A stretch of 64,000 nt of DNA from Escherichia phage GoldenSnicker. Within the stretch, counting starts at the first letter, position 1; each line of letters begins with the position of its first letter. The notes under the pieces were generated by a model, which was not told the origin of the DNA, did not search any database, and saw nothing but the letters and a program-made list of their open reading frames with translations. Below, in pieces: positions 8,014-60,454 of this stretch. Location of the stretch: the sequence record OR896832.1; one strand, 5' to 3'. A program made the translations under genes and the position numbers.

Positions 8014-8042
8014 ATCTTACTACTCCCTTAATCCGGTGTCAA
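8014..8042 (-). promoter_or_regulatory. sigma70-type early promoter (TTGACA-17-TAAGAT) with hairpin GGGAGTA-N6-TACTCCC overlapping -10
   Basis: Minus-strand TTGACACCGGATTAAGGGAGTAGTAAGATACTCCC; ~35 nt upstream of ATG at 7977. Confidence 0.6.
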
Positions 8043-8049
8043 CTACTTT

Positions 8050-8205
8050 TTAAATTTCTTCTACAGTAAAGTCTTCAATGTTGTTGTGCTCGGAGAACGT
8101 TGCCAGACCAGCATTCCATGCATCATCCTCAGAGAAGAATACACCGTAACGTTCATATCCTTTAGCGCCTTCAAATTTAATCATTAATTTGTGAGTATGT
8201 TTCAT
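8050..8205 (-). CDS. hypothetical protein (51 aa)
   Basis: Start moved to internal ATG preceded by AAGGAGAATCAAA leader; downstream of promoter 8237..8265. Confidence 0.55.
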   Translation of the reverse strand: MKHTHKLMIKFEGAKGYERYGVFFSEDDAWNAGLATFSEHNNIEDFTVEEI

Positions 8206-8236
8206 TTTGATTCTCCTTCGTTGTCTTGATGGGTTT

Positions 8237-8265
8237 AGTATAGGGGATCGCCGATCCCCTGTCAA
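8237..8265 (-). promoter_or_regulatory. sigma70-type early promoter (TTGACA-17-TATACT) with palindromic GATC-containing spacer
   Basis: Minus-strand TTGACA GGGGATCGGCGATCCCC TATACT; spacer is a perfect inverted repeat with two GATC sites. Confidence 0.7.
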
Positions 8266-8275
8266 CAACTATTTT

Positions 8276-8488
8276 TTAATTTTTACCCGCTCGTGCATTA
8301 ATACGCATTTTCTGCATAGCCATGATCTGGCTTACTGCTTCTTCTTTACGTTCTTGCGTGATAACGTGACCAGATTCCGCAAACTCTCCCGCAACTTCTT
8401 CTACGATCTCGCGAACTTGAGAACGTCCAAAGATGCGGTTTCCTTCGTAGCTCATAAATTCAGTCACTACTTGCTCAATAGATTTCAT
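8276..8488 (-). CDS. hypothetical protein (70 aa)
   Basis: Track ORF; GGAGAATCAC leader upstream of ATG. Confidence 0.55.
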   Translation of the reverse strand: MKSIEQVVTEFMSYEGNRIFGRSQVREIVEEVAGEFAESGHVITQERKEEAVSQIMAMQKMRINARAGKN

Positions 8489-8517
8489 GTGATTCTCCTT
8501 TCGTTTGGTATGGGAGT

Positions 8518-8546
8518 ATGTTACTACTCCCTTATCTTTACGTCAA
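8518..8546 (-). promoter_or_regulatory. sigma70-type early promoter (TTGACG-17-TAACAT) with hairpin GGGAGTA-N6-TACTCCC
   Basis: Minus-strand TTGACGTAAAGATAAGGGAGTAGTAACATACTCCC upstream of ATG at 8488. Confidence 0.55.
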
Positions 8547-8549
8547 CAA

Positions 8550-8711
8550 CTATTTTAAATTATTTTCGACCTTCACCCATTCCGCGTATTCTTGCGCGGC
8601 TACTTTCGGATTTAGTCCGTCTTCGTACATTGCATCAAGTAATTCTTTGTCGGTGGGCTTATACCCTAGATAAGCCTCCACCTGATTTTTCCAAATTTTA
8701 TACCAGTTCAT
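8550..8711 (-). CDS. hypothetical protein (53 aa)
   Basis: Track ORF trimmed to ATG 5 nt after upstream stop (TGA-TAAT-ATG). Confidence 0.45.
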   Translation of the reverse strand: MNWYKIWKNQVEAYLGYKPTDKELLDAMYEDGLNPKVAAQEYAEWVKVENNLK

Positions 8712-8715
8712 ATTA

Positions 8716-8988
8716 TCACCAGTCAAGAGCGCGTGTCTCTGCGTCTTCCCATGCTTGATCCATAACAGCCTTGAAAACATATTCTAGAGTATCATCTTTA
8801 GAGAATCCGAAGACTTTAGACGGAATATCTTCGATTGCTACTCCCGCAACTTCTGCATTACGCGCTTGGCAATAATGCAACTCTAAGTTATCGAGATAGC
8901 GACCGCCTAATTTCTCCATATCATCCCAACATTTCCAGTAACCTACTTTATCTGCAATTGCCAACACTTTGCTGTTTTCGTTGTTCAT
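8716..8988 (-). CDS. hypothetical protein (90 aa)
   Basis: Start at internal ATG preceded by AAGGAGAATCAAAG; downstream of promoter 9020..9048. Confidence 0.55.
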   Translation of the reverse strand: MNNENSKVLAIADKVGYWKCWDDMEKLGGRYLDNLELHYCQARNAEVAGVAIEDIPSKVFGFSKDDTLEYVFKAVMDQAWEDAETRALDW

Positions 8989-9019
8989 CTTTGATTCTCC
9001 TTTTGTTTGGTATGGGTGT

Positions 9020-9048
9020 ATTATGCAATGCTGGATTATGGAAGTCAA
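9020..9048 (-). promoter_or_regulatory. sigma70-type early promoter (TTGACT-17-CATAAT)
   Basis: Minus-strand TTGACTTCCATAATCCAGCATTGCATAAT immediately after terminator 9060..9089. Confidence 0.55.
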
Positions 9049-9059
9049 ACAACTTTTCA

Positions 9060-9089
9060 AATAAAAAAAGCCGACCACAAGGATCGGCT
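9060..9089 (-). terminator. rho-independent terminator
   Basis: Minus-strand AAGCCGATCCTTGTGGTCGGCTTTTTTTATTT after stop of 9100..9495. Confidence 0.75.
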
Positions 9090-9099
9090 TAATAGTCAG

Positions 9100-9495
9100 T
9101 TACTTACTAAATTTCTTTTTGGCTTCGTCTACTGCATGAGATGCCAGCACCGCTGCCGCATGTGCACTTTTATCTGTGTTGCATAGAACACCCAGATAAA
9201 CATCACGCCAAAGTTTAATCATCTCGTAGATCATATCAATATCATTTTCTTGTTTGTTGGCGATGCTATTCGTCGTTATCTGGTAAGGCAACGGCTTGAT
9301 CTGTACTGGTTCCGCCATCGGGCTAATCGGTTTCGGATCAGTCATAATAGGTGCTGTTGTTGGTGGTGTTTTCCATACATCATTATTCCACGGTTTAATC
9401 GTTGTATCGTAAAGTTTATAAGGATTTTTGTCTGGATTAACCATCCAGGCATGATGAGTACCCAAACCATTTGAAGTAATGCGTCGTTCAGTCAT
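9100..9495 (-). CDS. hypothetical protein (131 aa)
   Basis: Track ORF; followed by terminator. Confidence 0.55.
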   Translation of the reverse strand: MTERRITSNGLGTHHAWMVNPDKNPYKLYDTTIKPWNNDVWKTPPTTAPIMTDPKPISPMAEPVQIKPLPYQITTNSIANKQENDIDMIYEMIKLWRDVYLGVLCNTDKSAHAAAVLASHAVDEAKKKFSK

Positions 9496-9697
9496 ACTTT
9501 CCCTCCAAAAATTCTTTCATCAAATAGTCTATCGTTGCTCTGTGTTCTGGTGTGTTTGTTATCTCTGCTAACTTGTTCAGAGATTCAATAGTGATCCGGT
9601 TGGCTTCTTCCATAGTCTCAAAGACCATCGGTACAATCTTTTTATTGTTGTACACGAAAGCCACATAACCGCCTTCTGGATATTCTTTCATAATCAA
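9488..9697 (-). CDS. hypothetical protein (69 aa)
   Basis: Track ORF; overlaps stop of gene 52 (translational coupling). Confidence 0.5.
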   Translation of the reverse strand: MIMKEYPEGGYVAFVYNNKKIVPMVFETMEEANRITIESLNKLAEITNTPEHRATIDYLMKEFLEGKYD

Positions 9698-11055
9698 CCC
9701 TTCTTAAGTTCTTTAAGATCTTTCTTATATTCCTTCATTGCGGTCGTCTTTGTCCAATACTCATATTCACTATGATGTTTATCGGCATCTTTGACCAGTC
9801 GATCATACTCTTCTTGAGTAACGCTATACAATGGCATAGAAACTAGCTTATCGGCGTATGGACGCAGTTTTTCATGTCCATTGATGGATTGCATTACCTC
9901 GGCCTTTTTCTTTCCCTGTAGCTCGATTTCTCCCTTAATTACGCGATCGATAAATTCGGCTTTAGCCATTGCATAATTGTATGCTTCCAGCGTTTCCGCT
10001 TGCATCAATTCAATGCGTTTATCGACATACCCTAAGCGAATTTCGACGAATCGACGGATCAGATCGCTCGCTTTCTCGAATACTTCAACTAAACCACGTT
10101 CATTAACCACTACGATATTCTGGGCTACTAACTGCGTTAGTTTAAAATCCTTCATGATTTGCTCATGTCGAGCGGATTCATCTTCACTTTTGAAATAATC
10201 GCGTTTCAGTGTTACTTCAAATCTGAATCCATCCTTAGAGCAACGGTCATTATATGAGACAATCAGATCTTTTTCTTCCAGTGCATCCAGTACCGCTACA
10301 TATTCTTCACGGTCGAACTTATAAGGAACTTCTGATATTGTCAGTTTAGTCTTGCCGTTTAGTTCATATGTACCCTCAAGAATCACACCATCGCGATCAT
10401 CTCGCGGGATAACTTTACCCGTGAATTTCGGGAATTGAACACTAGGTTCTTTATCCAGTTTTCCGGCAAGTGCTAGCTCTGTGCATTCAATAAGGCTTTC
10501 CAGTGAATGCGGTAAAATGTCAGTTTTATACCCTGTAGCAATACCACTAATACCATTAGCCAATACCATTGGCACAACTGGCAAGTAGAACGCTGGCGGG
10601 ATGTGTTCCAGATCTTCGTGCTTGGGTGCGCAATTCATATCTTTATAGATTTTAAAGAAGTTTTCATGCACGCGAGCAAAGATATAACGTGCCGCACCTG
10701 CTTTCTGGACTAAACGCGATCCGAAGTTACCTTGACCGTCAAGCAGTGGAGTATTATTGCTCCATGTATTCGCCATGAGTGATCCGGCTTCTACGGCATT
10801 AGTTTCCCCGTGGTGATAACCCAACTCAGCAACACCAGATCCAATATCTGCCATCTTACGGAATTTCTTACGGTCGCCTTTACTCTTTTGTAAAGCACAT
10901 TCCATAACAAAGCGTTGCACTGGTTTAAGCCCATCCACTAATTGAGGAATCCCGCGTTCCTCGGCAGAATAGATCGCATATTCCTTAGCTTCATTATGTA
11001 CAATGCTTTCAAGGCTGCGGTAAGTAACTGATTTATTCATCTTCACCTCATACAC
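9694..11055 (-). CDS. 52: DNA topoisomerase II medium subunit gp52 (GyrA-like)
   Basis: 453 aa; N-terminal ..RGIPQLVDGLKPVQRFVM.. topoisomerase IIA motif; size and position as T4 gp52. Confidence 0.88.
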   Translation of the reverse strand: MYEVKMNKSVTYRSLESIVHNEAKEYAIYSAEERGIPQLVDGLKPVQRFVMECALQKSKGDRKKFRKMADIGSGVAELGYHHGETNAVEAGSLMANTWSNNTPLLDGQGNFGSRLVQKAGAARYIFARVHENFFKIYKDMNCAPKHEDLEHIPPAFYLPVVPMVLANGISGIATGYKTDILPHSLESLIECTELALAGKLDKEPSVQFPKFTGKVIPRDDRDGVILEGTYELNGKTKLTISEVPYKFDREEYVAVLDALEEKDLIVSYNDRCSKDGFRFEVTLKRDYFKSEDESARHEQIMKDFKLTQLVAQNIVVVNERGLVEVFEKASDLIRRFVEIRLGYVDKRIELMQAETLEAYNYAMAKAEFIDRVIKGEIELQGKKKAEVMQSINGHEKLRPYADKLVSMPLYSVTQEEYDRLVKDADKHHSEYEYWTKTTAMKEYKKDLKELKKG

Positions 11056-11410
11056 GCTTACAAATCACATTCTTTACTTTATCAGATTTATCAGCCCAAT
11101 CCAATAGCCATTTTAACGGAAGGATTGACACAATAAACGGGGCAGCAATCAAAGCAAACATGATACACCTGATAATCAGGAAAACGCAAGTGACAAAACT
11201 AGCGATAGTGATCCCGACAAAACAAAATACCATAGAAAACAGAGTAATGATATAGAAAGGCCAGAATACCCACTCCCGCATCTTAACGCCTTTGTATTCT
11301 CTGAATTGCTTAAAATCTACAAACAACTCTCGGATAGACGCGTACAGGACCGAAAAATCATCTTTCATTGCTCTGAATGAGCAATCTTCTATTTTAGAAT
11401 GACCTAGCAT
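11048..11410 (-). CDS. hypothetical membrane protein (120 aa)
   Basis: Track ORF; two long hydrophobic segments. Confidence 0.5.
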   Translation of the reverse strand: MLGHSKIEDCSFRAMKDDFSVLYASIRELFVDFKQFREYKGVKMREWVFWPFYIITLFSMVFCFVGITIASFVTCVFLIIRCIMFALIAAPFIVSILPLKWLLDWADKSDKVKNVICKRV

Positions 11411-11412
11411 TA

Positions 11413-11706
11413 TTAACCGCCTTTCATCATTGATACTGGAATTGTTTTCTGATTTGTGTATAACTGGCCTACTTCAATTTTTTCTTGAATCAACACGACG
11501 TTACAATATCCACTGTCTTTAAGTTTTCTGATAATGACTCGCTTTTGTTCGTCGGTGATAGGATTGACTGTTCTCACCAATTCACCGCAAATAATAGCAC
11601 CATCTTTACAATTGCCAGTAACTTTCATGCTACGACCGTGAACAACAACCACATCACCGTAAATCACATTTTCGTCGTCGTATTTGGTAATAACCGTGAC
11701 CGTCAT
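11413..11706 (-). CDS. hypothetical protein (97 aa)
   Basis: Track ORF; RBS GAGGGAATACATT. Confidence 0.5.
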   Translation of the reverse strand: MTVTVITKYDDENVIYGDVVVVHGRSMKVTGNCKDGAIICGELVRTVNPITDEQKRVIIRKLKDSGYCNVVLIQEKIEVGQLYTNQKTIPVSMMKGG

Positions 11707-11726
11707 AATGTATTCCCTCTAAGAAA

Positions 11727-11744
11727 GGCCGCGCAAAGCGGCCT
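11727..11744 (-). terminator. stem-loop (possible weak terminator/attenuator)
   Basis: AGGCCGC-gcaaa-GCGGCCT between 11752..12078 and 11413..11706; weak T-run. Confidence 0.4.
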
Positions 11745-11751
11745 ATGTTTA

Positions 11752-12078
11752 TTATTGTTCTACAGTATAACTGTTGTTTTCAAGCCATGCAATAACAATC
11801 TTTTCGCCAATTTCATCGAGCATTTCATCAGAGCCATATTCTTTGATGAAAATCGATGGATCGTTATTGCTTACTACGTGCTGGATCACAACATGTTCAG
11901 GAATTGCGTCTAGCAGTTCGCTATGATCATACTCATTAACGATATCTTCAACACTAACATTATTAACCAAATCAACATCATCCATAGTCACAGTAACGCG
12001 ACCGGACGGACGCAATGAATATTGGCTACTTTCAACTTCAACATGTGCACTTTCGCAAGTAACTTTCATATCAACCAT
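11752..12078 (-). CDS. hypothetical acidic protein (108 aa)
   Basis: Track ORF in co-directional array. Confidence 0.5.
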   Translation of the reverse strand: MVDMKVTCESAHVEVESSQYSLRPSGRVTVTMDDVDLVNNVSVEDIVNEYDHSELLDAIPEHVVIQHVVSNNDPSIFIKEYGSDEMLDEIGEKIVIAWLENNSYTVEQ

Positions 12079-12092
12079 AATTAATTCCTCTG

Positions 12093-13094
12093 TTAGTAAT
12101 GGCTAAAACCTTCGGTTACATCTTCAACCACATAGTAACGATGACAGCGCATTTTGGCATTCGCATAATCTTTCGGGATACTTACAACGTGACGCGGATC
12201 AACTTTACATTTAATGATTCGGCCTCGTCCACCGCCATAGTGCGGAATATAGTGTTTCGCTGCAACGTGGAGGCCATTAGAGCAAGTGCGATCATCATCT
12301 GGGTCCACGTCTTTACGCTTCATTTTAACCGTGCGCCCTGGGCTATTATCAAACGTATGCGTAAAGAAATCTTTATAATCAACATCAACACGTTTCCATG
12401 CATAGAAGCAACCATCTTCCCCGATCTCAATGTCGTTGTGCTCTAAGAAGTCAAATAGACGATCTACGGCCTTACGGCTAGGGTTTTTCTTGCACTTCTC
12501 AAAGAAGTTCAGATAGTGCGTATATGGCTTATTCTCTTTAATCGACTCCACAACTCGACGAGTCAGATTATTATCAAGAACAATATTATGATAATACACA
12601 ATACCATTTTCGATACGGAAAGCGCCGTGATAATATACTTCAACCGCTTTCTTAATGTCAATCAGCGTAATTGCTTTAATAAAATCATTCTGCTTAACTG
12701 CTTCCAGTGCTTCATTAAAGTTAACATGTGATGGATCAGCAGTATAAACAATGTCACCACATGTAATAGTAATAAACTTAGTTGAGGCTATGGCTACGAT
12801 TTTTGAGGAAGTAGTCACGGGCTTTTTTGCGCGTTCACCGCCTTTTCCTTTACTGGTTTTACGGCGTGCTTTACGTTTTTCTAGTGCCTTGCGGCCTTCC
12901 GCTACTGCGTCTTTCTGAATCAGTAATACACGGGAAGCAGTGCGACGAGATACACCAAATGCTGCCGCAAGTGCTTCGCGGGTAGTAAACTTACCTTCAC
13001 CCCACTGTTTAGCCAGTTTGATTTGTTTCGCAGAATCCAGGCATTGAACGTTACGGTCAGAGACGGTGATTTTTGCTTTAGTCATAGTATTCAT
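12093..13094 (-). CDS. rIIB: rIIB lysis-inhibition/RexAB-exclusion protein
   Basis: 333 aa; C-terminal SRLFDFLEHNDIEIGEDGCFYAWK..FDNSPGRTVKM..DDDRTCSNGLHV..DPRHVVSIP.DYANAKMRC..YVVEDVTE closely matches T4 rIIB; N-terminal HTH. Confidence 0.88.
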   Translation of the reverse strand: MNTMTKAKITVSDRNVQCLDSAKQIKLAKQWGEGKFTTREALAAAFGVSRRTASRVLLIQKDAVAEGRKALEKRKARRKTSKGKGGERAKKPVTTSSKIVAIASTKFITITCGDIVYTADPSHVNFNEALEAVKQNDFIKAITLIDIKKAVEVYYHGAFRIENGIVYYHNIVLDNNLTRRVVESIKENKPYTHYLNFFEKCKKNPSRKAVDRLFDFLEHNDIEIGEDGCFYAWKRVDVDYKDFFTHTFDNSPGRTVKMKRKDVDPDDDRTCSNGLHVAAKHYIPHYGGGRGRIIKCKVDPRHVVSIPKDYANAKMRCHRYYVVEDVTEGFSHY

Positions 13095-13147
13095 TCCTCT
13101 ATTAGTTGGGCGACTCTCGCCGCCCGATTCACATCATTATACCAGAA

Positions 13148-13279
13148 TTATTTTGCTTCTACAACCTTGCGGATTGTGCGGTCTGATACATTATAGATTC
13201 GTGCCAGTTCGCCTTTAGTCAAGCCGCGAGCGTATTGTTTACGGATGGTTTCTTTCTGGATATCGGTCAGTTTAGTCAT
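13148..13279 (-). CDS. small HTH protein (43 aa), not in ORF track
   Basis: Translated by hand: MTKLTDIQKETIRKQYARGLTKGELARIYNVSDRTIRKVVEAK; strong RBS GAGGTGATATT; between rIIA stop and rIIB start. Confidence 0.5.
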   Translation of the reverse strand: MTKLTDIQKETIRKQYARGLTKGELARIYNVSDRTIRKVVEAK

Positions 13280-13290
13280 AATATCACCTC

Positions 13291-16064: not shown

Positions 16065-16094
16065 ATAAGTCAACCTTTTGTTTTCTATGGGGAT

Positions 16095-16431: not shown

Positions 16432-16465
16432 TATTAAATCCTCATAAAAGAAAAGGGAGACTCCC

Positions 16466-16493: not shown

Positions 16494-16496
16494 GTG

Positions 16497-52328: not shown

Positions 52329-52352
52329 AAATTCACCCTCCAAAGAAGGTAT

Positions 52353-52634: not shown

Positions 52635-52642
52635 GTTGTACC

Positions 52643-53886: not shown

Positions 53887-53896
53887 TATATAATCC

Positions 53897-54404: not shown

Positions 54405-54690
54405 GATTTACCCCCAATTCATCAAGATTATGTCGCAGCATTTCAGAGTATTTTTCTACTTCCTTGATCTTAGTGTGGATCTCCACGATCTCATCTTCAC
54501 TATCAGAAAGTTTAATGGTAATAGGGGTGCTGCTTTTACCCGCCTTGATCGCTTCTTTCAGTTCAACCAACATGTCCGCGTGTTTCAATAGTAATTCTTC
54601 ACGCTGAACATAAGCGACGGTCAAAGCCTCATCAGCAATTTCTAAAGCATTTTCAGCGACACCAACAACCATTTTACGAGTAGACAGCAT
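54397..54690 (-). CDS. hypothetical protein (97 aa)
   Basis: Track ORF. Confidence 0.5.
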   Translation of the reverse strand: MLSTRKMVVGVAENALEIADEALTVAYVQREELLLKHADMLVELKEAIKAGKSSTPITIKLSDSEDEIVEIHTKIKEVEKYSEMLRHNLDELGVNHG

Positions 54691-54704
54691 AAATTCACCT
54701 CACA

Positions 54705-55013
54705 TTATTTCACGTTAACGCCGTCATCAATCCAGCCGACGCTATTTGGTTTAACAGTTTTACCATAGGATGCATACTTAATCAAGCATGGTTTAACATC
54801 GTTATCAAATCTTCCTAAGCGTACTCCAAAGTCAGGAATATCCATGTAAGCGGCTTTATATCCCCATGTACCATATTCAGAATCAATCTCAACCGGACGG
54901 CCTTTAAAAGCATACACTACACCGTGACGGTCAACGATAACATAGCAATAGCCAGCCGGAAGATACACAGTTTCACCGTAAACTTTAACTGGAGTAGCAG
55001 AAGAGATAAACAT
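54705..55013 (-). CDS. hypothetical protein (102 aa)
   Basis: Start at ATG after GAGGATTATATT leader; downstream of promoter 55048..55076. Confidence 0.5.
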   Translation of the reverse strand: MFISSATPVKVYGETVYLPAGYCYVIVDRHGVVYAFKGRPVEIDSEYGTWGYKAAYMDIPDFGVRLGRFDNDVKPCLIKYASYGKTVKPNSVGWIDDGVNVK

Positions 55014-55047
55014 AATATAATCCTCACATCGTTCATTTGATGCGGTC

Positions 55048-55076
55048 ATTATATGATAACCGCATTTTCATGTCAA
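55048..55076 (-). promoter_or_regulatory. sigma70-type promoter (TTGACA-17-TATAAT)
   Basis: Minus-strand TTGACATGAAAATGCGGTTATCATATAAT. Confidence 0.6.
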
Positions 55077-55082
55077 CAGTTT

Positions 55083-55391
55083 TTAAAAATCTTCTTCCGG
55101 TTTATATCGACCGTCGTCTTCTTGTTTTGGAGTAAATCCTTTATGCGTGCGCGGCTTCGCTTCCGGTTTCCCCGCGATCGATAGTCCAAGCCATTTAAGA
55201 AGTTTGTATGAGTAAGCGATGATCACAACTACCCACGTTAAAGGCCATACAATAGAACAAATGGCATATGCTCCAGTATCGACCTCTTTGGTGTCCTTAT
55301 CGAATCTGGCATACAAGCAAATTATAAGATAGGTGATCATTGCACCAGTAGGCCAGATATAAAGAACATTAACAATATCTTGTGTTGTCAC
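55083..55391 (-). CDS. hypothetical membrane protein (~102 aa, start uncertain)
   Basis: Track ORF trimmed to GTG preceded by GGAGGA directly after upstream stop; two hydrophobic segments. Confidence 0.4.
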   Translation of the reverse strand: MTTQDIVNVLYIWPTGAMITYLIICLYARFDKDTKEVDTGAYAICSIVWPLTWVVVIIAYSYKLLKWLGLSIAGKPEAKPRTHKGFTPKQEDDGRYKPEEDF

Positions 55392-55401
55392 GTTATCCTC
55401 C

Positions 55402-55680
55402 TTACATGTCTTGCAGTGCATAAAAGCATTTTTCTTCGTAGTCATAGAAAATGTCAAAGTATGCTTTTTCTACATACTCGCCATTGATCCAAGCGGCAGT
55501 AACAATCAGAGTGGTCCAGTTAGAACCGCTCTCAACCGTGAAGGTTTTAATACCCAGCTTCGCTGCCAAGTCGAACGCAAACCGGACGCAACCACGGCAG
55601 GAAGTGATATTGGAAGTTTTGATTTTAAAGCCACCGCGAGTTTTAGAAATTTCTACTTTAGCGAAAGACAGGTTGCTCAT
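55402..55680 (-). CDS. hypothetical protein (92 aa)
   Basis: Start at ATG after AAGGAGAATCAAA; downstream of promoter 55723..55751. Confidence 0.5.
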   Translation of the reverse strand: MSNLSFAKVEISKTRGGFKIKTSNITSCRGCVRFAFDLAAKLGIKTFTVESGSNWTTLIVTAAWINGEYVEKAYFDIFYDYEEKCFYALQDM

Positions 55681-55722
55681 TTTGATTCTCCTTAAGAAAG
55701 TGTGTTTCGTTTTGATGTGTGT

Positions 55723-55751
55723 AGTATAGGGGATCACCGATCCCCTGTCAA
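55723..55751 (-). promoter_or_regulatory. sigma70-type promoter (TTGACA-17-TATACT) with palindromic GATC-containing spacer
   Basis: Minus-strand TTGACAGGGGATCGGTGATCCCCTATACT. Confidence 0.7.
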
Positions 55752-55759
55752 CAACTTTT

Positions 55760-56023
55760 TTATGATTTTAGTGAATTAACTACTACATCAAAATGATGTA
55801 CAGAGTACACCTTATTAAACACATACTCATCGTGTTTAGGAATAGCCCCTAATCGCTCTATTTCGCTCGCTAACACGATAAACTGTTTATCCGGTGCATT
55901 TACCTTATATGCTTCAACAACGCACGGGAAACGCGTTTCAGAGAGTTCTGGATAGTTTTCTGAATCCATCAGGACAATGAATACCCTGTTACATTGATTG
56001 TAGAATCCTGTTTTTGATTTCAT
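55760..56023 (-). CDS. hypothetical protein (start uncertain; overlaps upstream ORF)
   Basis: Track ORF 55760..56089 overlaps 55989..56330 by ~100 nt in another frame; trimmed to internal ATG. Confidence 0.35.
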   Translation of the reverse strand: MKSKTGFYNQCNRVFIVLMDSENYPELSETRFPCVVEAYKVNAPDKQFIVLASEIERLGAIPKHDEYVFNKVYSVHHFDVVVNSLKS

Positions 56024-56330
56024 CAAGTTTTCTTCTCTGTACAATTCGTGAAATCTTCCTTTCATGATTTCGTTGGTTCTTGTCTTCACAGTTTACCCAC
56101 TCAACAAGATCTTTACCTAACTCGAAAGCCCATTCTCGGTCTTGCTTTACGTTTTGTAGGTATGGACTTTCTGACACTCTACGAAGTGATGTTGTCGTAA
56201 CAAGAATGATCCCAGGAATGGTCGGATGTTCCTTTCCATATACAATAGGACGCGAGTCACTATCAATACCTTGTAAGAAGGTGTATCCTGAATCACTTAG
56301 AATCATATACTTTTTCATTTCACACATCAC
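55989..56330 (-). CDS. hypothetical protein (113 aa)
   Basis: Track ORF. Confidence 0.45.
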   Translation of the reverse strand: MMCEMKKYMILSDSGYTFLQGIDSDSRPIVYGKEHPTIPGIILVTTTSLRRVSESPYLQNVKQDREWAFELGKDLVEWVNCEDKNQRNHERKISRIVQRRKLDEIKNRILQSM

Positions 56331-56584
56331 AGTTTCCTCAACCAGTTATTCAAGCGAGTAAACCATGATGCTTTTCGTGCTTCTTTTACTTTATGTGCAC
56401 GTAAACCACTGAAACACCATTCATAATCATCACTGAAACATGATTCAACAGGAACACCCGCATTTCGTAGTTCTCTGGTCGTTATCATGAATCCTTGACA
56501 TAATGGGCGACCTTCAACAATGATAGGAAGTTTAACTTTTTCCATGAAAGTATACCCAGCACGGTCAATAATTTCAATCTTCAT
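56327..56584 (-). CDS. hypothetical protein (85 aa), KIEIID paralog
   Basis: MKIEIIDRAGYTFMEKVKLPIIVEGR.. near-duplicate of 56603..56800 N-terminus. Confidence 0.5.
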   Translation of the reverse strand: MKIEIIDRAGYTFMEKVKLPIIVEGRPLCQGFMITTRELRNAGVPVESCFSDDYEWCFSGLRAHKVKEARKASWFTRLNNWLRKL

Positions 56585-56602
56585 AATATAATCCTCAATT
56601 AG

Positions 56603-56800
56603 TTATACCGCCCAGGCTTCATTTGCACGAAAACACCATTCATACTCAGGAAAATAACCTTTAATTGGTACGCCAGCTTTTTGTAGTTCCTGCGTTTCTA
56701 CAAGATAATCAAGCCCATATCGACGACCTTCCACGATGATAGGAAGTTTAACGCCATTCATGAAAGAAAATCCACCGTCATCAATAATTTCAATTTTCAT
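56603..56800 (-). CDS. hypothetical protein (65 aa), KIEIID paralog
   Basis: MKIEIIDDGGFSFMNGVKLPIIVEGR.. Confidence 0.5.
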   Translation of the reverse strand: MKIEIIDDGGFSFMNGVKLPIIVEGRRYGLDYLVETQELQKAGVPIKGYFPEYEWCFRANEAWAV

Positions 56801-57044
56801 TTACATTATCTCCATAGATCTTTCCAGCAATATCAATTTCACCAGCGCGAACATCTAGGATAAGATGCGGTAGGTGTATGCAGTTTTCCCACCCTACGCG
56901 CTTCATTTCTGAAACAGTGACGTAAGCCCACCCGTTCGCTGTAATAAAGTCTACTTCAACCTTGAGAGGAAAGCAAGACTTTTCTATGTCTTCGAATCCG
57001 ACAATGTGTTTTGTCGTTGAATATGGAATATATCCGGTGATCAT
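56790..57044 (-). CDS. hypothetical protein (84 aa)
   Basis: Track ORF. Confidence 0.45.
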   Translation of the reverse strand: MITGYIPYSTTKHIVGFEDIEKSCFPLKVEVDFITANGWAYVTVSEMKRVGWENCIHLPHLILDVRAGEIDIAGKIYGDNVNEN

Positions 57045-57475
57045 TTTGTGATCTCCTTATACTCAACACACCATAAGCGGGTAGCCCATGATAAACGCTC
57101 ATAACGCTGGCAGAAATCGGACCATAGATATTGTGTACCGTCTTGCATGGTTGAAATATGCGTTTTCTCACCTACTTTCACGAAAGAAGTATTCGATTTT
57201 GTGATCTCGACCGGAGTATATCCGAAAGCGGGTTCCAAGTCAACATCTGAACTAAATGCCAGTTTAACAGAATTTGTTTTTCTGACCGCTGTCCGGTTTC
57301 CTTCTGGGTACAGCACAGCAGGTTTAGCGCCTAAGCGGATAAACTCAGCATTTTTAATGAACAGAATATCATGATAACCGTCATATTCCGACACTTCCAT
57401 AGTAACAGGAAAATCGATATGTGCTAAACCTGGTAGATCTCGCATATCATGAAATGTAGCCATAATCTTTTTCAT
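57041..57475 (-). CDS. hypothetical protein (144 aa)
   Basis: Start at ATG after GAGGAATATAGA RBS. Confidence 0.5.
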   Translation of the reverse strand: MKKIMATFHDMRDLPGLAHIDFPVTMEVSEYDGYHDILFIKNAEFIRLGAKPAVLYPEGNRTAVRKTNSVKLAFSSDVDLEPAFGYTPVEITKSNTSFVKVGEKTHISTMQDGTQYLWSDFCQRYERLSWATRLWCVEYKEITK

Positions 57476-57485
57476 TCTATATTCC

Positions 57486-57683
57486 TCACTCTTCTGTTTC
57501 ATTTCTTTTATATGGTACTATAACAGGATTAATACAGCAAGCACCAATTACGTTATGAGCACCACAATTTAAACATTTATAGTCATGGAACTTATTAAGG
57601 AATCGACCAAACTCATAGCCGACTAACGCCGCATGTACTTGAGTCTCGATCTCATCCATATCAGCCAATGTTTTAACCTTCAT
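57486..57683 (-). CDS. small zinc-ribbon-like protein (65 aa)
   Basis: Start at ATG after GAGGATTATATT; CLNCG..GACC cysteines. Confidence 0.45.
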   Translation of the reverse strand: MKVKTLADMDEIETQVHAALVGYEFGRFLNKFHDYKCLNCGAHNVIGACCINPVIVPYKRNETEE

Positions 57684-57693
57684 AATATAATCC

Positions 57694-57984
57694 TCAAATT
57701 GTAGTTTTGCGAAGATGGTCATTACATGCTTTTAATGCATCGGTCGCGGTGTCATAGCGAGTATTATCATAGCACCAATAACCATCTGTCAACTGATAAA
57801 TTAATCCATCCTTTTTAGCTTCAATGAAAGACAATTCTTTGAAAGTTTCTACTTTCTTTGCTGATACTCCACGGTCACGGCGCTTATAGAGTTTAGCCAA
57901 AATGCGTTCAGCTTGTTCCTCTTTATCACCAGACAGATCCCAGATGATGTTTCGGATATGCTTGATTAATTGTTCAGTGGTCAT
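57694..57984 (-). CDS. hypothetical protein (96 aa)
   Basis: Track ORF; AAGGAGAATCAAAG leader; downstream of promoter 58014..58041. Confidence 0.55.
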   Translation of the reverse strand: MTTEQLIKHIRNIIWDLSGDKEEQAERILAKLYKRRDRGVSAKKVETFKELSFIEAKKDGLIYQLTDGYWCYDNTRYDTATDALKACNDHLRKTTI

Positions 57985-58013
57985 CTTTGATTCTCCTTAG
58001 TTGGTATGCGTGC

Positions 58014-58041
58014 ATTATAGCATTGTGATTATCTTTGTCAA
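58014..58041 (-). promoter_or_regulatory. sigma70-type promoter (TTGACA-16-TATAAT)
   Basis: Minus-strand TTGACAAAGATAATCACAATGCTATAAT right after terminator 58052..58079. Confidence 0.6.
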
Positions 58042-58051
58042 CACACAAAAA

Positions 58052-58079
58052 CAAAAAAGGCTACCCCGAAGGATAGCCC
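58052..58079 (-). terminator. rho-independent terminator after gp38-like gene
   Basis: Minus-strand GGGCTATCCTTCGGGGTAGCCTTTTTTGTTTTTG. Confidence 0.7.
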
Positions 58080-58085
58080 ATAAAA

Positions 58086-58865
58086 TTACACGCGAGCACC
58101 GTAGATCGTGCCTACTTTATCCCAGCGAGGGGCATTGCCAGTAACAGCCTTACCAGCCGCTCCGCCATTATATTCCGATCCCTGTCCACGGATATTACAT
58201 TTACCACCAGCGCCACCAGCATCACCACCGTTACCGCCATTATATACACCGTTGACAGACCCTTTACCTGGAGCGGAAATAGTACCAGCAGTAGCACCCT
58301 GTTCCATATTAGCAGACCCACCAGCAGCGCCAAATGGACGACCGCCGCCACCTCCAAAAGTCAATTTCATTTGTGGAAAAGGAGACCAGTATCCTCCGCC
58401 ACCACCGCCACCGCCACCGCAAATAGCGCCGTTATTTGTGATGCGTAAGCGTGTGCCTATACCGTTGTTAATTGCATTACCACCAGCACCACCAGCGGAG
58501 TTATTGCCACCATTACCACCACGCCCCCAAACATGAACACCTGCATTAATGATCAATGTTACATATTCGTTTGTTAACGAGCTAGGGAAGTCAAGACAAG
58601 GAACGCCAGTAGATTGGGAAACAATATTACCCGTGATAGTAATTACTACAGGAGTAGATCCTTGTGCTTTCATCCAGTTAATAAGAGTGTCTTTATTGTA
58701 AGAGTTACTAGCACCAATGCTATAATGAATCTCTTTAGAGCGTCCGACCATCGCGGACATATACGCCGGACGACCTAAGCGAACAGCTTGCATTGCGGCG
58801 CTCATCCACCGTTGACCAGTCTCGGACACAGCAGATGATCCTACCCATCCAGAAGATATTGCCAT
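58086..58865 (-). CDS. 38: gp38-like glycine-rich receptor-binding adhesin (T2/T6 type)
   Basis: 259 aa; N-terminus MAISSGWVGSSAVSETGQRWMS.. and glycine-rich motifs (GRGGNGG, GGGGGGGGG, GGGGGRPFG, GGNGGDAGGAGG) ending ..TIYGARV, matching recalled T2 gp38 architecture; RBS GAGGAAATTTT. Confidence 0.7.
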   Translation of the reverse strand: MAISSGWVGSSAVSETGQRWMSAAMQAVRLGRPAYMSAMVGRSKEIHYSIGASNSYNKDTLINWMKAQGSTPVVITITGNIVSQSTGVPCLDFPSSLTNEYVTLIINAGVHVWGRGGNGGNNSAGGAGGNAINNGIGTRLRITNNGAICGGGGGGGGGYWSPFPQMKLTFGGGGGRPFGAAGGSANMEQGATAGTISAPGKGSVNGVYNGGNGGDAGGAGGKCNIRGQGSEYNGGAAGKAVTGNAPRWDKVGTIYGARV

Positions 58866-58878
58866 AAAATTTCCTCAC

Positions 58879-58901
58879 AAGAAAAGCCCCATTTAAGGGG
58901 C
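58879..58901 (-). terminator. rho-independent terminator immediately upstream of gp38-like gene
   Basis: Minus-strand GCCCCTTAAATGGGGCTTTTCTTG after stop of 58920..59141. Confidence 0.65.
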
Positions 58902-58919
58902 ATTGATTGATAATATTAC

Positions 58920-59141
58920 TTAGATGATCTCTGCTTCACCATTCAGGAAGAAAGACCATGTTTTGTTAGGATAGCGAAGCGCCCATGATTCAGCGGTTTT
59001 AACACCAGCTTCGAACAATTGACGGCTGGTTACTTTAGCCATACCATCTTCGATGGCAACGTTTTCAATAATCATCGGGTACTTAGCGCCACGCATGAAA
59101 CCGAAGCCAGCGGAAGATTTGATAATTTTAACCGTTGCCAT
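58920..59141 (-). CDS. hypothetical protein (73 aa), distant KIEIID-family relative
   Basis: MATVKIIKSSAGFGFMRGAKYPMIIENV.. ; AGGAGAATCAAAA leader; downstream of promoter 59183..59211. Confidence 0.5.
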   Translation of the reverse strand: MATVKIIKSSAGFGFMRGAKYPMIIENVAIEDGMAKVTSRQLFEAGVKTAESWALRYPNKTWSFFLNGEAEII

Positions 59142-59182
59142 TTTTGATTCTCCTAGAAAGTGTATCTCGTTTCGATGTGTGT

Positions 59183-59211
59183 ATTATGCAATAACACCGG
59201 ATCGCTGTCAA
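59183..59211 (-). promoter_or_regulatory. sigma70-type promoter (TTGACA-17-CATAAT)
   Basis: Minus-strand TTGACAGCGATCCGGTGTTATTGCATAAT. Confidence 0.55.
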
Positions 59212-59230
59212 CACTTTCTAAGAAAAATTT

Positions 59231-59515
59231 TTAAACTAATCGAATATAGCCCAGAATTTCAGCACCTTTAGCCAGTCCTAAAACTTCCCATTCAAGGTCT
59301 CCATAGTCATAATTTGCAACCATCAACTGACCATTTTTCATGCAGCAATCATGAGAGAAAATTTGCCCCGCATAAACTACGATAGTGATAAACTTTCCTG
59401 ATTCTGGCGGTGTGGAAGACAAAGCGACCATATGACCATTCAGCTTAGTCACCAGTGATGGAACAATAAAATTCGGGCTTACCTTAATACCGTTAAATTC
59501 GTTTGTGTCTTTCAT
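59231..59515 (-). CDS. hypothetical protein (94 aa)
   Basis: Track ORF. Confidence 0.5.
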   Translation of the reverse strand: MKDTNEFNGIKVSPNFIVPSLVTKLNGHMVALSSTPPESGKFITIVVYAGQIFSHDCCMKNGQLMVANYDYGDLEWEVLGLAKGAEILGYIRLV

Positions 59516-59862
59516 GCCAGACCTCGCAAAACACTAATAGCATAATCATGCTGGTTATTCATAATATCAATTGCATTGTGATAACGAGCTAAACCATCAA
59601 GGATAAATTCTTGTTTATCTTGTTTCAGTTTGGTATCACGCGCAGCCATAAGAGCATCAAGAACAGGTCCAAAGTGATTATCTAATTCATCTTCGGTTGC
59701 AATGTTTCCTATTGCCTCGTCGATCCGTGATTCTAATGCTTGCTTTTCGTTGATCACTTGCTGGGTATATTCCAACACATCAAGAATATCGCGGGTAACG
59801 TCGCCATGATAAGGTATTCCCGCATGAAGATGATCAATTAGTCGTTGAATGTCAATGTTCAT
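59512..59862 (-). CDS. hypothetical protein (116 aa)
   Basis: Track ORF. Confidence 0.5.
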   Translation of the reverse strand: MNIDIQRLIDHLHAGIPYHGDVTRDILDVLEYTQQVINEKQALESRIDEAIGNIATEDELDNHFGPVLDALMAARDTKLKQDKQEFILDGLARYHNAIDIMNNQHDYAISVLRGLA

Positions 59863-60197
59863 TTGTAACCCTCCTCTGAAAGCACATCCCAGATCGTTGA
59901 GTCAAGGTGCATTAAATTCCACATAATAGAGTCATAACTACCGAAGCCAGAAGTAAAAATTACATCACACTGGCGATAGGTCTTATGAAAATCGGTGGCT
60001 GTCTCTGCATCAATAGGCATATCGTCACCGGAAAGCACCAGACATTTAAGAATCATAACTCTGTTAGCCGTTGGCGCTTGCTTAGTCTTTTCAGCATATT
60101 TTTCGATGATCCGTTTTGCCTTTTCTTCTTTGATACGTCCAGACCAAATCCGGTTTCTATATTGATTCATAATAATTTCAATCACATCATTTTGCAT
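59859..60197 (-). CDS. hypothetical protein (112 aa)
   Basis: Track ORF. Confidence 0.5.
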   Translation of the reverse strand: MQNDVIEIIMNQYRNRIWSGRIKEEKAKRIIEKYAEKTKQAPTANRVMILKCLVLSGDDMPIDAETATDFHKTYRQCDVIFTSGFGSYDSIMWNLMHLDSTIWDVLSEEGYK

Positions 60198-60396
60198 TCT
60201 TCACGGTCTCCATAATTGTTTTGTAAGCCAGTTTAAGATGATCACCGAAAAACTTTGCGGTGTTACCCTTCGGATCGCGGAGCATGGTTTCTACGATCTC
60301 ATCGGCAGTAACAATTTCTCCTTTCTTTGCTGCATGTTCTACCATATACTTCAAAGTTTCTTCGGAAGCAAGTGCTGCGGCTACTGGATTAATCAT
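60187..60396 (-). CDS. hypothetical protein (69 aa)
   Basis: Track ORF; AAGGAGAATCAAA leader; downstream of promoter 60426..60454. Confidence 0.5.
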   Translation of the reverse strand: MINPVAAALASEETLKYMVEHAAKKGEIVTADEIVETMLRDPKGNTAKFFGDHLKLAYKTIMETVKNAK

Positions 60397-60425
60397 TTTG
60401 ATTCTCCTTTGTTGTCGATGTGTGC

Positions 60426-60454
60426 ATTATGCTATACCCTATTCCGGTTGTCAA
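60426..60454 (-). promoter_or_regulatory. sigma70-type promoter (TTGACA-17-CATAAT)
   Basis: Minus-strand TTGACAACCGGAATAGGGTATAGCATAAT just after terminator 60461..60496. Confidence 0.55.

Follow-up and report, generated by a model that had tools for sequence, protein, structure and literature searches.

Early promoters of the minus strand

The window, i.e. the whole 64,000-nucleotide stretch of Escherichia phage GoldenSnicker [GenBank:OR896832.1] that was analysed, is a segment of a Krischvirus genome (RB49-like T4-type coliphage) with 96–99% nucleotide identity to RB49, Phi1, vB_Eco_SAP and W115. After gene calling, its early block comprises 112 genes on the minus strand and 39 intergenic gaps that are 20 nt or longer, of which 24–26 bear a promoter. 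We identified 24 credible and two weak promoter cassettes, all on the minus strand between positions 8014 and 60454 (first cassette 8042–8014, last beginning at 60454); both the range and the claim of at least 20 near-consensus sigma70 promoters made in the original prediction thus stand. The strict pattern TTGACD-N16–17-TATAAT has 10 matches, all on the minus strand, compared to 0.17 expected from shuffled sequences, and the looser TTGAC[AGT]-N16–18-TAnnnT has 46 matches on the minus strand compared to 3 on the plus strand. An independent consensus scan of positions 44001–64000 gave 12/12 and 11/12 matches exclusively on the minus strand.

The cassette consensus, AAAAAA.T.G-TTGACA-N17-TATAAT-AC.C.CATC.AAA, agrees with the RB49 early consensus of Nolan et al. 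(2006, PMC1524935), with which it shares the G at -33, T/C at -12 and the C-rich positions -3 to -1, and equivalent sites are already annotated in GenBank as early promoters (three in the RB49 record, nine in that of GEC-3S). Among the families returned by a repeat finder are the cassette sub-families D2, D3, D8, D9, D10, D12 and D15, and a 78-nt cassette used as BLAST query detects 5–10 copies per Krischvirus genome.

The leader, measured from the last base of the -10 to the ATG, is 25–62 nt long, and 25–45 nt in 21 of 24 cassettes. The downstream genes are not only small unknown ORFs but include those for DNA polymerase gp43, gp39 and gp44 and a 392-aa frd.2-like gene. Two leaders had been proposed as parts of the cassette, only one of which is tied to it: a promoter precedes 10 of the 11 copies of AAGGAGAATCA, whereas GAGGATTATAT(T/A)ATG (repeat families D4/D7) has 10 exact copies with only 3–5 behind a promoter and is a general translation-initiation context. 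The GAGGATTATATTATG leader is likewise the general ribosome-binding context of the phage, without cassette specificity. Just outside the range, an AT-rich tract with TTGACG is fused to GAGGATTATATTATG without a -10 (6894–6915, minus strand), possibly a truncated cassette. Leaders are unique at roughly eight of these 24 promoters, namely the ones preceding core replication genes, for which 'ordinary early promoter' is a better description than 'mobile repeat'.

Hairpins and their positions

The best hairpin reaches -10 kcal/mol or stronger in 20 of 26 cassettes, compared to 3% of 110-nt coding windows (Mann-Whitney P = 1e-11), and the fold z-scores of the cassettes are -1.7 to -4.9. An inverted repeat in the spacer or over the -10, which the original prediction ascribed to most cassettes, is present in 12 of the 24; four others carry the hairpin upstream of the -35, four carry it in the leader, and no hairpin was found in three to four of the 24 cassettes searched.

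The hairpin fills the spacer in four cassettes. Two belong to family D2 and have a long leader A, namely 55678–55751 (TTGACA GGGGATCGGTGATCCCC TATACT, ATG 55680) and 45981–46054 (GGGGATC-gcga-GATCCCC, TATACT, ATG 45983); the others lie at 38570–38626 (CGGGGA-gaaa-TCCCCG, TATACT, ATG 38572) and 8203–8265 (GGGGATCGGCGATCCCC, TATACT, leader A, ATG 8205).

Eight hairpins overlap the -10. Leader B follows at 55011–55076 (ATGCGGTTAT-catata-ATGACCGCAT around TATAAT, ATG 55013), 50879–50941 (ACGGGAGTA-gtaaga-TACTCCCGT, TAAGAT, ATG 50881 of the frd.2-like gene) and 49646–49706 (GGGAGTAT-gctata-ATACTCCC over TATAAT, ATG 49648), and leader A at 51789–51851 (GGGAGTA-N6-TACTCCC, TAAAAT, ATG 51791; families D3 and D9) and 8486–8546 (GGGAGTA-gtaaca-TACTCCC, TAACAT, ATG 8488). 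The cassette at 7975–8042 combines GGGAGTA-gtaaga-TACTCCC and TAAGAT with leader GAGGAATATATT (ATG 7977), while those at 16429–16493 and 16062–16123 have a 13-bp AAGGGAGATTCTC..GGGAGTCTCCCTT over TATAAT (ATG 16431) and GGGGATAT-atcata-ATATCCCC over CATAAT (ATG 16064), respectively. The exact motif GGGAGTA..TACTCCC occurs five times and GGGGATC..GATCCCC three times.

Directly upstream of the -35 in four cassettes lies a G/C-rich hairpin followed by a T-run, predicted to be a canonical intrinsic terminator. These cassettes are 60394–60494 (terminator 60494–60467, TTGACA-17-CATAAT 60454–60426, leader AAGGAGAATCAAA, ATG 60396), which has orthologues in 12 relatives and is an annotated promoter in GEC-3S; 57982–58079 (terminator 58079–58058, TTGACA-16-TATAAT 58041–58014, leader A, ATG 57984); 47144–47241 of family D8 (post-nrdD terminator 47241–47220, TTGACA-16-TATAAT 47203–47176, ATG 47146); and 8986–9090 (terminator AAGCCGATC..GGTCGGCTTTTTTT, TTGACT-17-CATAAT 9048–9020, leader A, ATG 8988).

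Leader hairpins downstream of the -10 are found at 33757–33847 before gene 44 (TTGACT-17-TATAAT, GTGGGGAGTG..TACTCCCCGT, ATG 33759), the equivalent of which is annotated as a hypothetical early promoter in the RB49 record, at 29018–29092 (TTGACA-16-TATAAT overlapping the end of gene 43, 12-bp hairpin, ATG 29020), at 22708–22771 before a modB homologue (TTGACA-17-TATTAT, GCCTCC..GGAGGC-TTTTT including the Shine-Dalgarno, ATG 22710) and at 18318–18410 before gene 39 (TTGACA-16-TATGAT, 14-bp hairpin, ATG 18320).

Outside these classes are the cassette at 59139–59211, whose hairpin is not convincing (TTGACA-17-CATAAT, 41-nt leader, TAGGAGAATCAAAA ATG 59141), one without a hairpin at 22143–22203 before an srd homologue (TTGACA-17-AATAAT, leader A, ATG 22145; family D15), the early promoter upstream of DNA polymerase gene 43 at 31758–31821 (TTGACA-17-TATAAT, ATG 31760) and a promoter within the end of dda at 19671–19758 (TTGACT-18-TATTAT, 55-nt leader, ATG 19673). 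The two weak candidates, both with leader B, are 53884–53976 (TTGACT-18-TAACAT, 60-nt leader with a CAGAGA..TCTCTG hairpin, ATG 53886) and 27692–27781 (TTGACA-18-TAGCAT, then terminator AAAGGGGCTACGTGCCCCTTTTT, ATG 27694).

Identity with PeSL elements

Promoter-early stem-loops (PeSLs) were defined in RB49 and Phi1, which hold 51 and 52 copies (Arbiol, Comeau, Kutateladze, Adamia & Krisch 2010, Genome Biol Evol 2:140; PMC2839356). Their published anatomy is an AT-rich region with an upstream stop codon, sigma70 -35 and -10 boxes, a stem-loop most commonly between the boxes or over the -10, a Shine-Dalgarno and a downstream start codon (PMC2839356), and the window agrees with this description feature for feature. 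It also shares with RB49 and Phi1 the genus (96–97% nucleotide identity), the positional classes of stem-loop, the hyperplastic regions, the nrdD neighbourhood, the link to ORF indels and the PeSL pair flanking gene 43, which is named explicitly in PMC2839356 and corresponds here to the cassettes ending at 31821 and 29092. The window cassettes are positional orthologues of those of RB49 and Phi1, with no essential difference from RB49 beyond slight variation in individual spacer and loop sequences and in the set of flanked ORFs. We therefore consider it highly probable (roughly 0.88) that these modules are the published PeSL early-promoter cassettes of RB49-type T4-like coliphages. The resemblance to T4-type PeSLs proposed originally was a correct recognition of a known feature rather than a discovery, since identity with the published elements, beyond mere resemblance, leaves nothing new in the modules.

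More distant systems share only part of this design. The PeSL-like motifs of T4/PST and KVP40/nt-1, proposed mediators of modular shuffling, are also promoter and stem-loop composites at junctions of variable genes (Comeau, Arbiol & Krisch 2014, PMC4122927), while the PeSL-like elements at T-even internal-protein loci are regarded as analogues, not homologues (PMC2839356); the T-even elements have T4-type early promoters (GTTTAC -35) and weaker AT-rich stems, in contrast to the E. coli consensus TTGACA and G/C-rich stems of the window. T4 early promoters (Pe) and the predicted RB49 set (PMC1524935; Desplats et al. 2002) share host sigma70 dependence, an A-rich UP-like element at -40 to -44 and a site 5' to early genes or novel ORFs, but their description alone lacks the stem-loop, the shared leader and the role as recombination substrate. 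Like integron gene cassettes and phage 'morons', a comparison drawn by the PeSL authors (PMC2839356), the cassettes accompany small accessory ORFs that are gained and lost together with their expression signals. Integrons, however, use an integrase and an attC-type site, whereas PeSL exchange involves neither and apparently proceeds by general homologous recombination between repeated regulatory DNA, and unlike morons the regulatory repeat is itself the crossover site.

Each cassette is a unit of ~60–100 bp, in which an A/T-rich tract, usually holding the stop codon of the upstream gene, is followed by a near-consensus host sigma70 promoter (TTGACA-N16–18-TATAAT-like). Next is a stretch rich in C that closes with a conserved CAT, the A of which is the probable transcription start; then come a short, A-rich leader, a strong Shine-Dalgarno and the start codon (ATG) of the gene that follows. 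These promoters would be used by unmodified E. coli RNA polymerase immediately after infection, giving every small early-gene block its own transcription start. This promoter function is predicted from sequence and supported by published RB49 reporter assays and 5'-end mapping. The reporter-tested PeSLs (193/192, 206/205 and 211/210) lie elsewhere in the RB49 genome, outside the equivalent of the window (PMC2839356), and it is by analogy with the literature that promoter, terminator and mini-circle activities may be extended to the window copies.

Role of the embedded hairpins

Since a spacer or -10 hairpin lies upstream of the start of its own cassette, it would form only in read-through RNA from the preceding gene, where it might insulate neighbouring units by termination, by attenuation or as a 3'-end barrier. 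Unlike intrinsic (Rho-independent) terminators, the 12 spacer and -10 hairpins have no T-run and fail the terminator sequence rule on the sense strand, the U-tract being confined to the upstream class and one or two leader hairpins. A role of the embedded hairpins as terminators, and with it an insulating step, can therefore be suggested only tentatively.

The same missing U-tract would suit RNA elements other than terminators, i.e. blocks to 3' exonucleases that define 3' ends, or processing sites, with read-through. The G+C-rich stems of 6–9 bp with small loops fit such a role, as does their conservation with sense-strand wobbles: among the 6–14 genomes compared, stems are constant and loops variable (e.g. 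GGGGAT-[CGGTG/CACGT/CGCGT/CGCCG]-ATCCCC). However, in the sole experimental test the PeSL211/210 stem-loop, placed in the transcript, lowered downstream lacZ expression to an extent comparable to rrnB T1 (PMC2839356), unexpected for a pure stabiliser, and we regard this alternative as unlikely.

That reporter result also weighs against the palindromes working as DNA, whether as sites for a phage- or host-encoded protein (a recombination factor, or a repressor that would shut off early promoters) or as cruciforms cut by a structure-specific nuclease. Perfect palindromes do sit exactly at operator positions, in the spacer or over the -10, outside their own transcript and without a U-tract; they fall into few discrete sequence families (GGGGATC.., GGGAGTA.., CGGGGA..), and the PeSL authors speculated on a DNA-binding protein recognising GGGG...CCCC (PMC2839356). 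On the other hand, the central bases vary freely, loops of 3, 4 or 5 nt would shift the half-site spacing, and when stem variants with at least two flanking Watson-Crick pairs are counted, G.U wobbles on the sense strand exceed A.C mismatches by about 9:1 overall, a bias unexpected for a duplex palindrome, although the embedded hairpins taken by themselves give only about 5–7 to 1–3, which is not significant. A role as DNA thus appears distinctly unlikely.

Gene gain and loss at cassettes

Comparison with 13 relatives revealed 11 distinct indel events, four of which are homing-endonuclease gene insertions away from cassettes. In six of the remaining seven a breakpoint lies inside a cassette, and in four of the seven both do; compared to cassettes at about 23% of gene junctions, 6/7 gives a binomial probability of ~8e-4, although the events are few and not fully independent because three cluster in one 600-bp region. 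Homology stops either within the leader or within the A/T tract immediately preceding the -35, and inserted units carry their own cassette. The gp38 module, missing here from MIZ4 and kvi, has the cassette at 57982–58079 as its right-hand breakpoint; the vacated site in these two phages holds a chimeric cassette combining a spacer hairpin of the 38626 type, found in both phages at a different locus, with a leader of the 58041 type. The cassette at 8203–8265 and its 51-aa ORF are missing from PHB13 and MIZ4, which have insertions immediately upstream of 8486–8546 (+356 bp and +502 bp, respectively) and an additional gene within the leader of 18318–18410; kvi has a 589-bp insertion immediately upstream of the -35 of 16429–16493. 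A small-ORF insertion at 57471–57497 used repeated ribosome-binding leaders and no promoter cassette. The location of six of the seven events at cassettes reproduces the published modular-shuffling model of PeSLs.

It could be argued that these are ordinary, independent early promoters, neither mobile nor recombinogenic, each drawn by selection towards a common set of optimal host signals (a UP-like A-tract, a -35 and -10 at consensus, a discriminator rich in C, an A-rich leader free of structure and a strong Shine-Dalgarno), and that indels occur there simply since intergenic sites tolerate them. Leader B is indeed a generic ribosome-binding site at many promoter-less genes, the leaders of about eight core-gene promoters are unique, as noted above, and single look-alikes exist between non-homologous flanking genes in the unrelated phages phiPsa267 (AAAATAGTTGTTGACA..CATCAA..AAGGAGATTCAAAATG) and SE_PL (TTGACA-GGGGAT..ATCCCC-TATAAT..CATC); some of the likeness among the copies may thus have arisen by convergence towards optimal signals for expression. 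As a full account this is very unlikely, given that the likeness spans positions unconstrained by promoter function (spacer and initial transcribed region, 72–89% identity over 49–78 nt within sub-families), that breakpoints fall inside cassettes and not just in intergenic DNA, enriched even relative to a gene-junction null, and that both the chimeric cassette of MIZ4 and kvi and published mini-circles with PeSL junctions exist.

Under the modular-shuffling model, the T4-type recombination machinery could cross over between cassette copies because the same 30–80 bp are repeated, always in one orientation, at many gene junctions. Breakpoint mapping among the relatives shows this pattern, and mini-circle intermediates are known only from the literature. 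Such crossovers would delete, insert or exchange small ORFs in these phages, each together with its own promoter.

Cassettes of the early gene block are PeSLs

The promoter, stem-loop and leader cassettes on the minus strand of the window are members of the published family of promoter-early stem-loops (PeSLs), in the phage group in which PeSLs were defined, and are already known. Arbiol et al. (2010) described ~100 PeSLs, 51 in RB49 and 52 in phi1, which comprise an AT-rich region with the upstream stop codon, −35 and −10 boxes of sigma70 consensus, a stem-loop, and a Shine-Dalgarno (SD) sequence with the start codon; the stem-loop is often polyG/polyC and may lie in five positions, the commonest being in the spacer or across the −10 (PMC2839356). 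Nucleotide identity to Krischvirus genomes (RB49, Phi1, JSE, GEC-3S, vB_Eco_SAP, TB34 and W115) is 96–99% for the DNA polymerase gene as well as for the 24 kb at either end of the window. Window positions 1–13290 correspond to RB49 150670–164018 and 40001–64000 to RB49 27282–51278, in identical orientation. Orthologues of every window cassette occur at the equivalent position in RB49, Phi1, PHB13, MIZ4 and kvi, and orthologues of the cassettes at 40–64 kb are also present in GEC-3S, JSE, Whisky, Makalu_003, pEJ01 and two IMG/VR contigs (orthologous cassettes were taken from GenBank phage records; querying IMG/VR for proteins related to the frd.2-like one returned three loci). The original prediction of a resemblance to PeSLs was borne out, the genome being of the RB49/phi1 type and the cassettes having the same anatomy and orthologous copies in both phages.

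Matching to published PeSLs was made via orthology to the RB49 sequence and via loci named in the text of the 2010 paper, according to which gene 43 has a bordering PeSL on either side and nrdD is also linked with PeSLs (PMC2839356). These correspond to the cassettes at 31821 and 29092 and to that adjoining nrdD at 47203 (cassettes are named here by the start of the −35 box, minus strand). The equivalents of 29092, 31821 and 33847 are annotated as hypothetical early promoters in the RB49 record, and the GEC-3S record annotates nine promoters in the segment matching 40–64 kb, which by order and spacing are 46054, 47203, 49706, 51851, 55076, 55751, 58041, 59211 and 60454. The consensus of the window cassettes agrees with that published for RB49 early promoters, which has G at −33, T or C at −12 and a C-rich stretch from −3 to −1 (Nolan et al. 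2006, PMC1524935). RB49 lacks motA and middle promoters (PMC1524935), and the literature cites 5'-end mapping of its early transcripts. Among copies outside the window, lacZ fusions were made of PeSL193/192 and PeSL206/205, with ~13,000 Miller units from a single wild-type clone, and inverse PCR gave evidence for mini-circles of ORF192 and ORF210, attributed to recombination between adjacent PeSLs (PMC2839356).

Gene layout and promoter anatomy

Late genes (tail fibre genes 36 and 37, holin t) occupy the plus strand from 1 to ~4950, and are followed up to 64000 by an unbroken minus-strand block that extends from rIIB/rIIA via gene 43 to tk and vs and comprises ~112 early and replication genes. 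This block has 111 gene junctions, 39 of which leave 20 nt or more between the genes. The T4-type late promoter motif TATAAATA has its sole copy in the 64 kb at 61446–61453 (minus strand), in the intergenic gap that precedes the rI homologue (ATG at 61412); the late tail-fibre genes within the window have no copy ahead of them on the plus strand. The block also contains a tandem family of four consecutive paralogous genes (43494–44318, 44331–44810, 44800–45327 and 45338–45847, minus strand) with a conserved 5' end common to all four (repeat family D1, 68–74% identity over 69 nt), and a further pair of paralogous small ORFs at 56327–56584 and 56603–56800 (family D6).

Near-consensus sigma70 promoters are confined almost entirely to the minus strand, as originally predicted: the strict pattern TTGACD-N16-17-TATAAT gave 10 matches, all on that strand, compared to 0.17 expected from dinucleotide shuffles, and a looser pattern gave 46 minus-strand and three plus-strand matches. 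An independent consensus scan of 44–64 kb placed all 12/12 and 11/12 matches on the minus strand. In 24 of the 39 gaps of at least 20 nt there is a promoter with no more than two mismatches from consensus followed by an SD sequence and ATG, and two more gaps contain weaker candidates; the other gaps of this size are mostly plain terminators. The 24 intergenic promoters have −35 boxes TTGACA (n = 18), TTGACG (n = 3) and TTGACT (n = 3), with −10 boxes that include TATAAT (n = 8), CATAAT (n = 4) and TATACT (n = 4), and their anchored consensus is AAAAAA.T.G-TTGACA-N17-TATAAT-AC.C.CATC.AAA. Consensus promoters inside genes (for example 63583, 57243, 51974, 50100, 45456, 36111, 35670, 13550, 12661) were discarded as cassettes because they are not followed by an SD-ATG or lie inside long ORFs.

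Upstream of the −35 the consensus is tt.aaaaaa.t.g (AT fraction 0.67, compared to 0.60 for the whole window), and in 15 of the 24 cassettes the stop codon of the upstream gene lies ~0–21 nt from the −35. All 24 end in an SD sequence and ATG 25–62 nt past the −10, this distance being 25–45 nt in 21. The array extends exactly as predicted, from 8014 to 60454 (first cassette 8042–8014, last beginning at 60454). The predicted distance of 30–45 nt to a small ORF is close to that of most leaders, but several of the downstream genes are large and known. Cassettes cluster among hypothetical ORFs at 8.0–9.1 kb, 16 kb and 46–60.5 kb, and also occur around gene 43 and beside nrdD.

Repeated leaders and cassette families

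Two leaders had been assigned to the cassettes, and only one of these is tied to them. This is AAGGAGAATCA, which comes after a promoter in 10 of its 11 copies. The second, GAGGATTATAT(T/A)ATG, has 10 exact copies, only 3–5 of which are preceded by a promoter; it also stands ahead of promoter-less genes at 57683, 56584, 51504, 15399 and 6896, and is therefore the general translation-initiation context of this phage. At 6894–6915 (minus strand) an A/T tract and TTGACG are fused directly to GAGGATTATATTATG with no −10, an arrangement that could be a cassette cut down when a −35 region recombined with a leader.

A mechanical repeat finder grouped the dispersed repeats into families, two of which (D4 and D7) include GAGGATTATAT. 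The spacer-hairpin type forms family D2 (8265, 46054, 55751 and, more loosely, 16123; 62–89% identity over 61 nt), the GGGAGTA type D3 and D9 (8042, 8546, 50941, 51851), and the terminator plus −35 type D8 (47203, 58041, 60454), while D10, D12 and D15 comprise the initial transcribed region with the AAGGAGAATCA leader. A 78-nt cassette used as query matched 5–10 places per Krischvirus genome, and in genomes with no orthologous locus it still matched paralogous copies at 80–83% identity.

Position and possible action of the stem-loops

A simple hairpin of −10 kcal/mol or lower lies within −45 to +65 of the −35 in 20 of 26 cassettes (the weaker candidates included), compared to 3% of 1500 coding windows of equal length (Mann-Whitney P = 1e-11), and ViennaRNA fold z-scores for the cassettes range from −1.7 to −4.9. 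Rfam covariance models returned nothing from the 64 kb at the gathering threshold. The hairpin fills the spacer in four cassettes (55751, 46054, 38626, 8265), overlaps the −10 in eight (55076, 51851, 50941, 49706, 16493, 16123, 8546, 8042), is a canonical terminator with a T-run upstream of the −35 in four (60454, 58041, 47203, 9048) and lies in the 5' leader downstream of the −10 in four (33847, 29092, 22771, 18410), with 3–4 cassettes having no convincing stem. These positional classes are those listed for PeSLs (PMC2839356). The original prediction had placed most repeats in the spacer or over the −10, which accounts for 12 cassettes but not for the upstream, leader and stemless ones.

Two GATC Dam sites are present in each of three spacer hairpins of the form GGGGATC..GATCCCC (8243–8259, 46032–46049, 55729–55745). 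The phage has a Dam methylase gene of its own (52643–53455); GATC is not significantly enriched in the cassettes (15 vs 10 expected, P = 0.09). In the leader of the modB homologue (22710–22771, minus strand) the hairpin GCCTCC-N12-GGAGGC-TTTTT has the Shine-Dalgarno sequence in its 3' arm and a T-run at its end, and could hide the ribosome-binding site or act as an attenuator of the transcript it lies in.

A G/C-rich hairpin followed by a T-run is present at 60494–60467, 58079–58058 and 47241–47220 and in the hairpin upstream of 9048, and in none of the 12 spacer and −10 hairpins. In the latter two classes the 3' arm stops at or before the predicted transcription start (TAAGAT-actccc-A), and these hairpins are therefore expected to be missing from the cassette's own mRNA; they would form only in DNA or in transcripts that read through from upstream. 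An insulator role, in which the embedded hairpins end or attenuate upstream transcription, is plausible but not established, since they have no T-run and terminator activity was tested for a single stem-loop, PeSL211/210, elsewhere in the RB49 genome (PMC2839356).

Stems are constant across genomes, with variation in loop bases and loop length. When only stem variants with two or more flanking Watson-Crick pairs are counted, a restriction set after inspection of the data, sense-strand G.U exceeds A.C by ~9:1; in the embedded hairpins taken by themselves the excess is weak, at only ~5–7 to 1–3. A symmetric count with stems free to extend outwards gave 15 vs 16, but is confounded because the stems then run out into the −35 and −10 hexamers. 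The G.U excess gives only a hint of strand-specific RNA structure. Action at the DNA level, which the original PeSL authors raised too (PMC2839356), is a less probable alternative. It is very improbable that the palindromes GGGGATC-N3-4-GATCCCC, GGGAGTA-N6-TACTCCC and CGGGGA-GAAA-TCCCCG are not terminators but sequence-specific DNA sites for a putative phage protein, serving recombination targeting or early-promoter shut-off, in cassettes that might also cross unrelated phage families; traffic between families is hinted at by a single look-alike of the spacer-hairpin cassette in Salmonella phages SE_PL, 7t3 and PHA46.

Look-alikes in other phages

The three Salmonella phages are jumbo phages, unrelated to T4-like phages, and each carries the layout TTGACA-GGGGAT..ATCCCC-TATAAT-..CATC in one place per genome; in SE_PL (MT001829, 6575–6661) it is intergenic and reads AAAAATAGTG TTGACA GGGGATTATTCATCCCC TATAAT AATCCCATCGAC..ATG. 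A weaker look-alike occurs in Serratia phage BF and Erwinia phage pEa_SNUABM_47. Pseudomonas phage phiPsa267 (MT670417, 59967–60043) has an intergenic sequence 77% identical to cassette 8265 over 76 nt, AAAATAGTTG TTGACA ..16 nt.. TAGACT ..CATCAAACACAACAAAGGAGATTCAAAATG, in which the spacer has no hairpin, and this hairpin-less form is also present in related Otagovirus genomes, again in one place per genome. Transfer of the SE_PL and phiPsa267 look-alikes together with a Krischvirus ORF was rejected, as a tblastn comparison of the proteins on either side with the window and every relative gave no match at E ≤1. Since they occur in one place per genome and the flanking genes are not homologous, the simplest reading of the look-alikes outside Krischvirus is convergence on strong signals for expression in the host, and the phiPsa267 type probably reflects convergent strong early expression signals.

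Insertions and deletions at cassettes

Structural differences between the window and 13 relatives were listed from chained BLAST alignments, using the homologous 64 kb of five relatives and the 24-kb right part of eight more. The early block shows 11 distinct indel events, four of which are homing-endonuclease gene insertions that touch no cassette: at 30560 inside DNA polymerase gene 43, splitting the gene (MIZ4, kvi), at 39650 upstream of gene 47 (RB49, MIZ4), at 48230 inside nrdD (JSE) and at 52700 between dam and nrdC (PHB13, GEC-3S, pEJ01). The inserted genes are mostly of HNH type, and the window carries none of the four.

Six of the seven remaining indels have a breakpoint in a cassette, where cassettes mark ~23% of junctions (binomial ~8e-4, our own calculation from junction and indel counts). 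At 8057–8266 a 51-aa ORF and one cassette are missing in PHB13 and MIZ4, both breakpoints lying in cassettes with an 18-nt overlap. Insertions immediately upstream of a −35 are found at 8266–8286 (Phi1, +282 bp containing ORF263.1) and at 8547–8568 (PHB13, +356 bp; MIZ4, +502 bp; each with its own cassette). In kvi a 589-bp gene inserted at 16493–16525 has its end exactly at the −35, and in PHB13 and MIZ4 an 805-bp gene is inserted in the gene 39 leader at 18267–18334. The sixth indel is the gp38 adhesin module (58008–58920), which is missing in MIZ4 and kvi and has its right breakpoint in the transcribed part of cassette 58041. The vacated site in both phages reads TTGACA-CGGGGAGAAATCCCCG-TATAAT-...ATACCAACTAAGGAGAATCAAAT-ATG, a chimeric cassette that joins a spacer hairpin of the 38626 type to a leader of the 58041 type. 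In the window the gp38 tail-fibre adhesin gene (58086–58865, minus strand) lies among early ORFs between a terminator (58901–58886) and cassette 58041, and in MIZ4 and kvi a gp38-type gene instead adjoins gene 37 on the plus strand.

Homology in the alignments ends in the A/T tract right before TTGACA, or in the leader. The seventh indel involves no promoter: at 57471–57497 (minus strand) PHB13 and Makalu_003 have a small ORF between two copies of the RBS leader, GAGGAATA(T/C)A(G/A)AATGAA, and repeated leaders can therefore be crossover sites without a promoter. The enrichment of breakpoints in cassettes backs the model of gene shuffling by PeSLs, and is supportive rather than conclusive because the events are few and three of them lie within 600 bp.

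Conclusions

The result for this window is one of confirmation, in that the cassettes sit where the 2010 paper (PMC2839356) places PeSLs. Hairpins that lack a U-tract, and a possible dedicated protein that recognizes them, are a modest matter for phage specialists and no new phenomenon. Indel breakpoints still fall in cassettes when the comparison is widened from the original two genomes to 13 relatives. PeSLs are among the few concrete mechanisms proposed for the gain and loss of accessory genes in large virulent phages, their repeated regulatory DNA being at once an expression signal and a linker for modular exchange.
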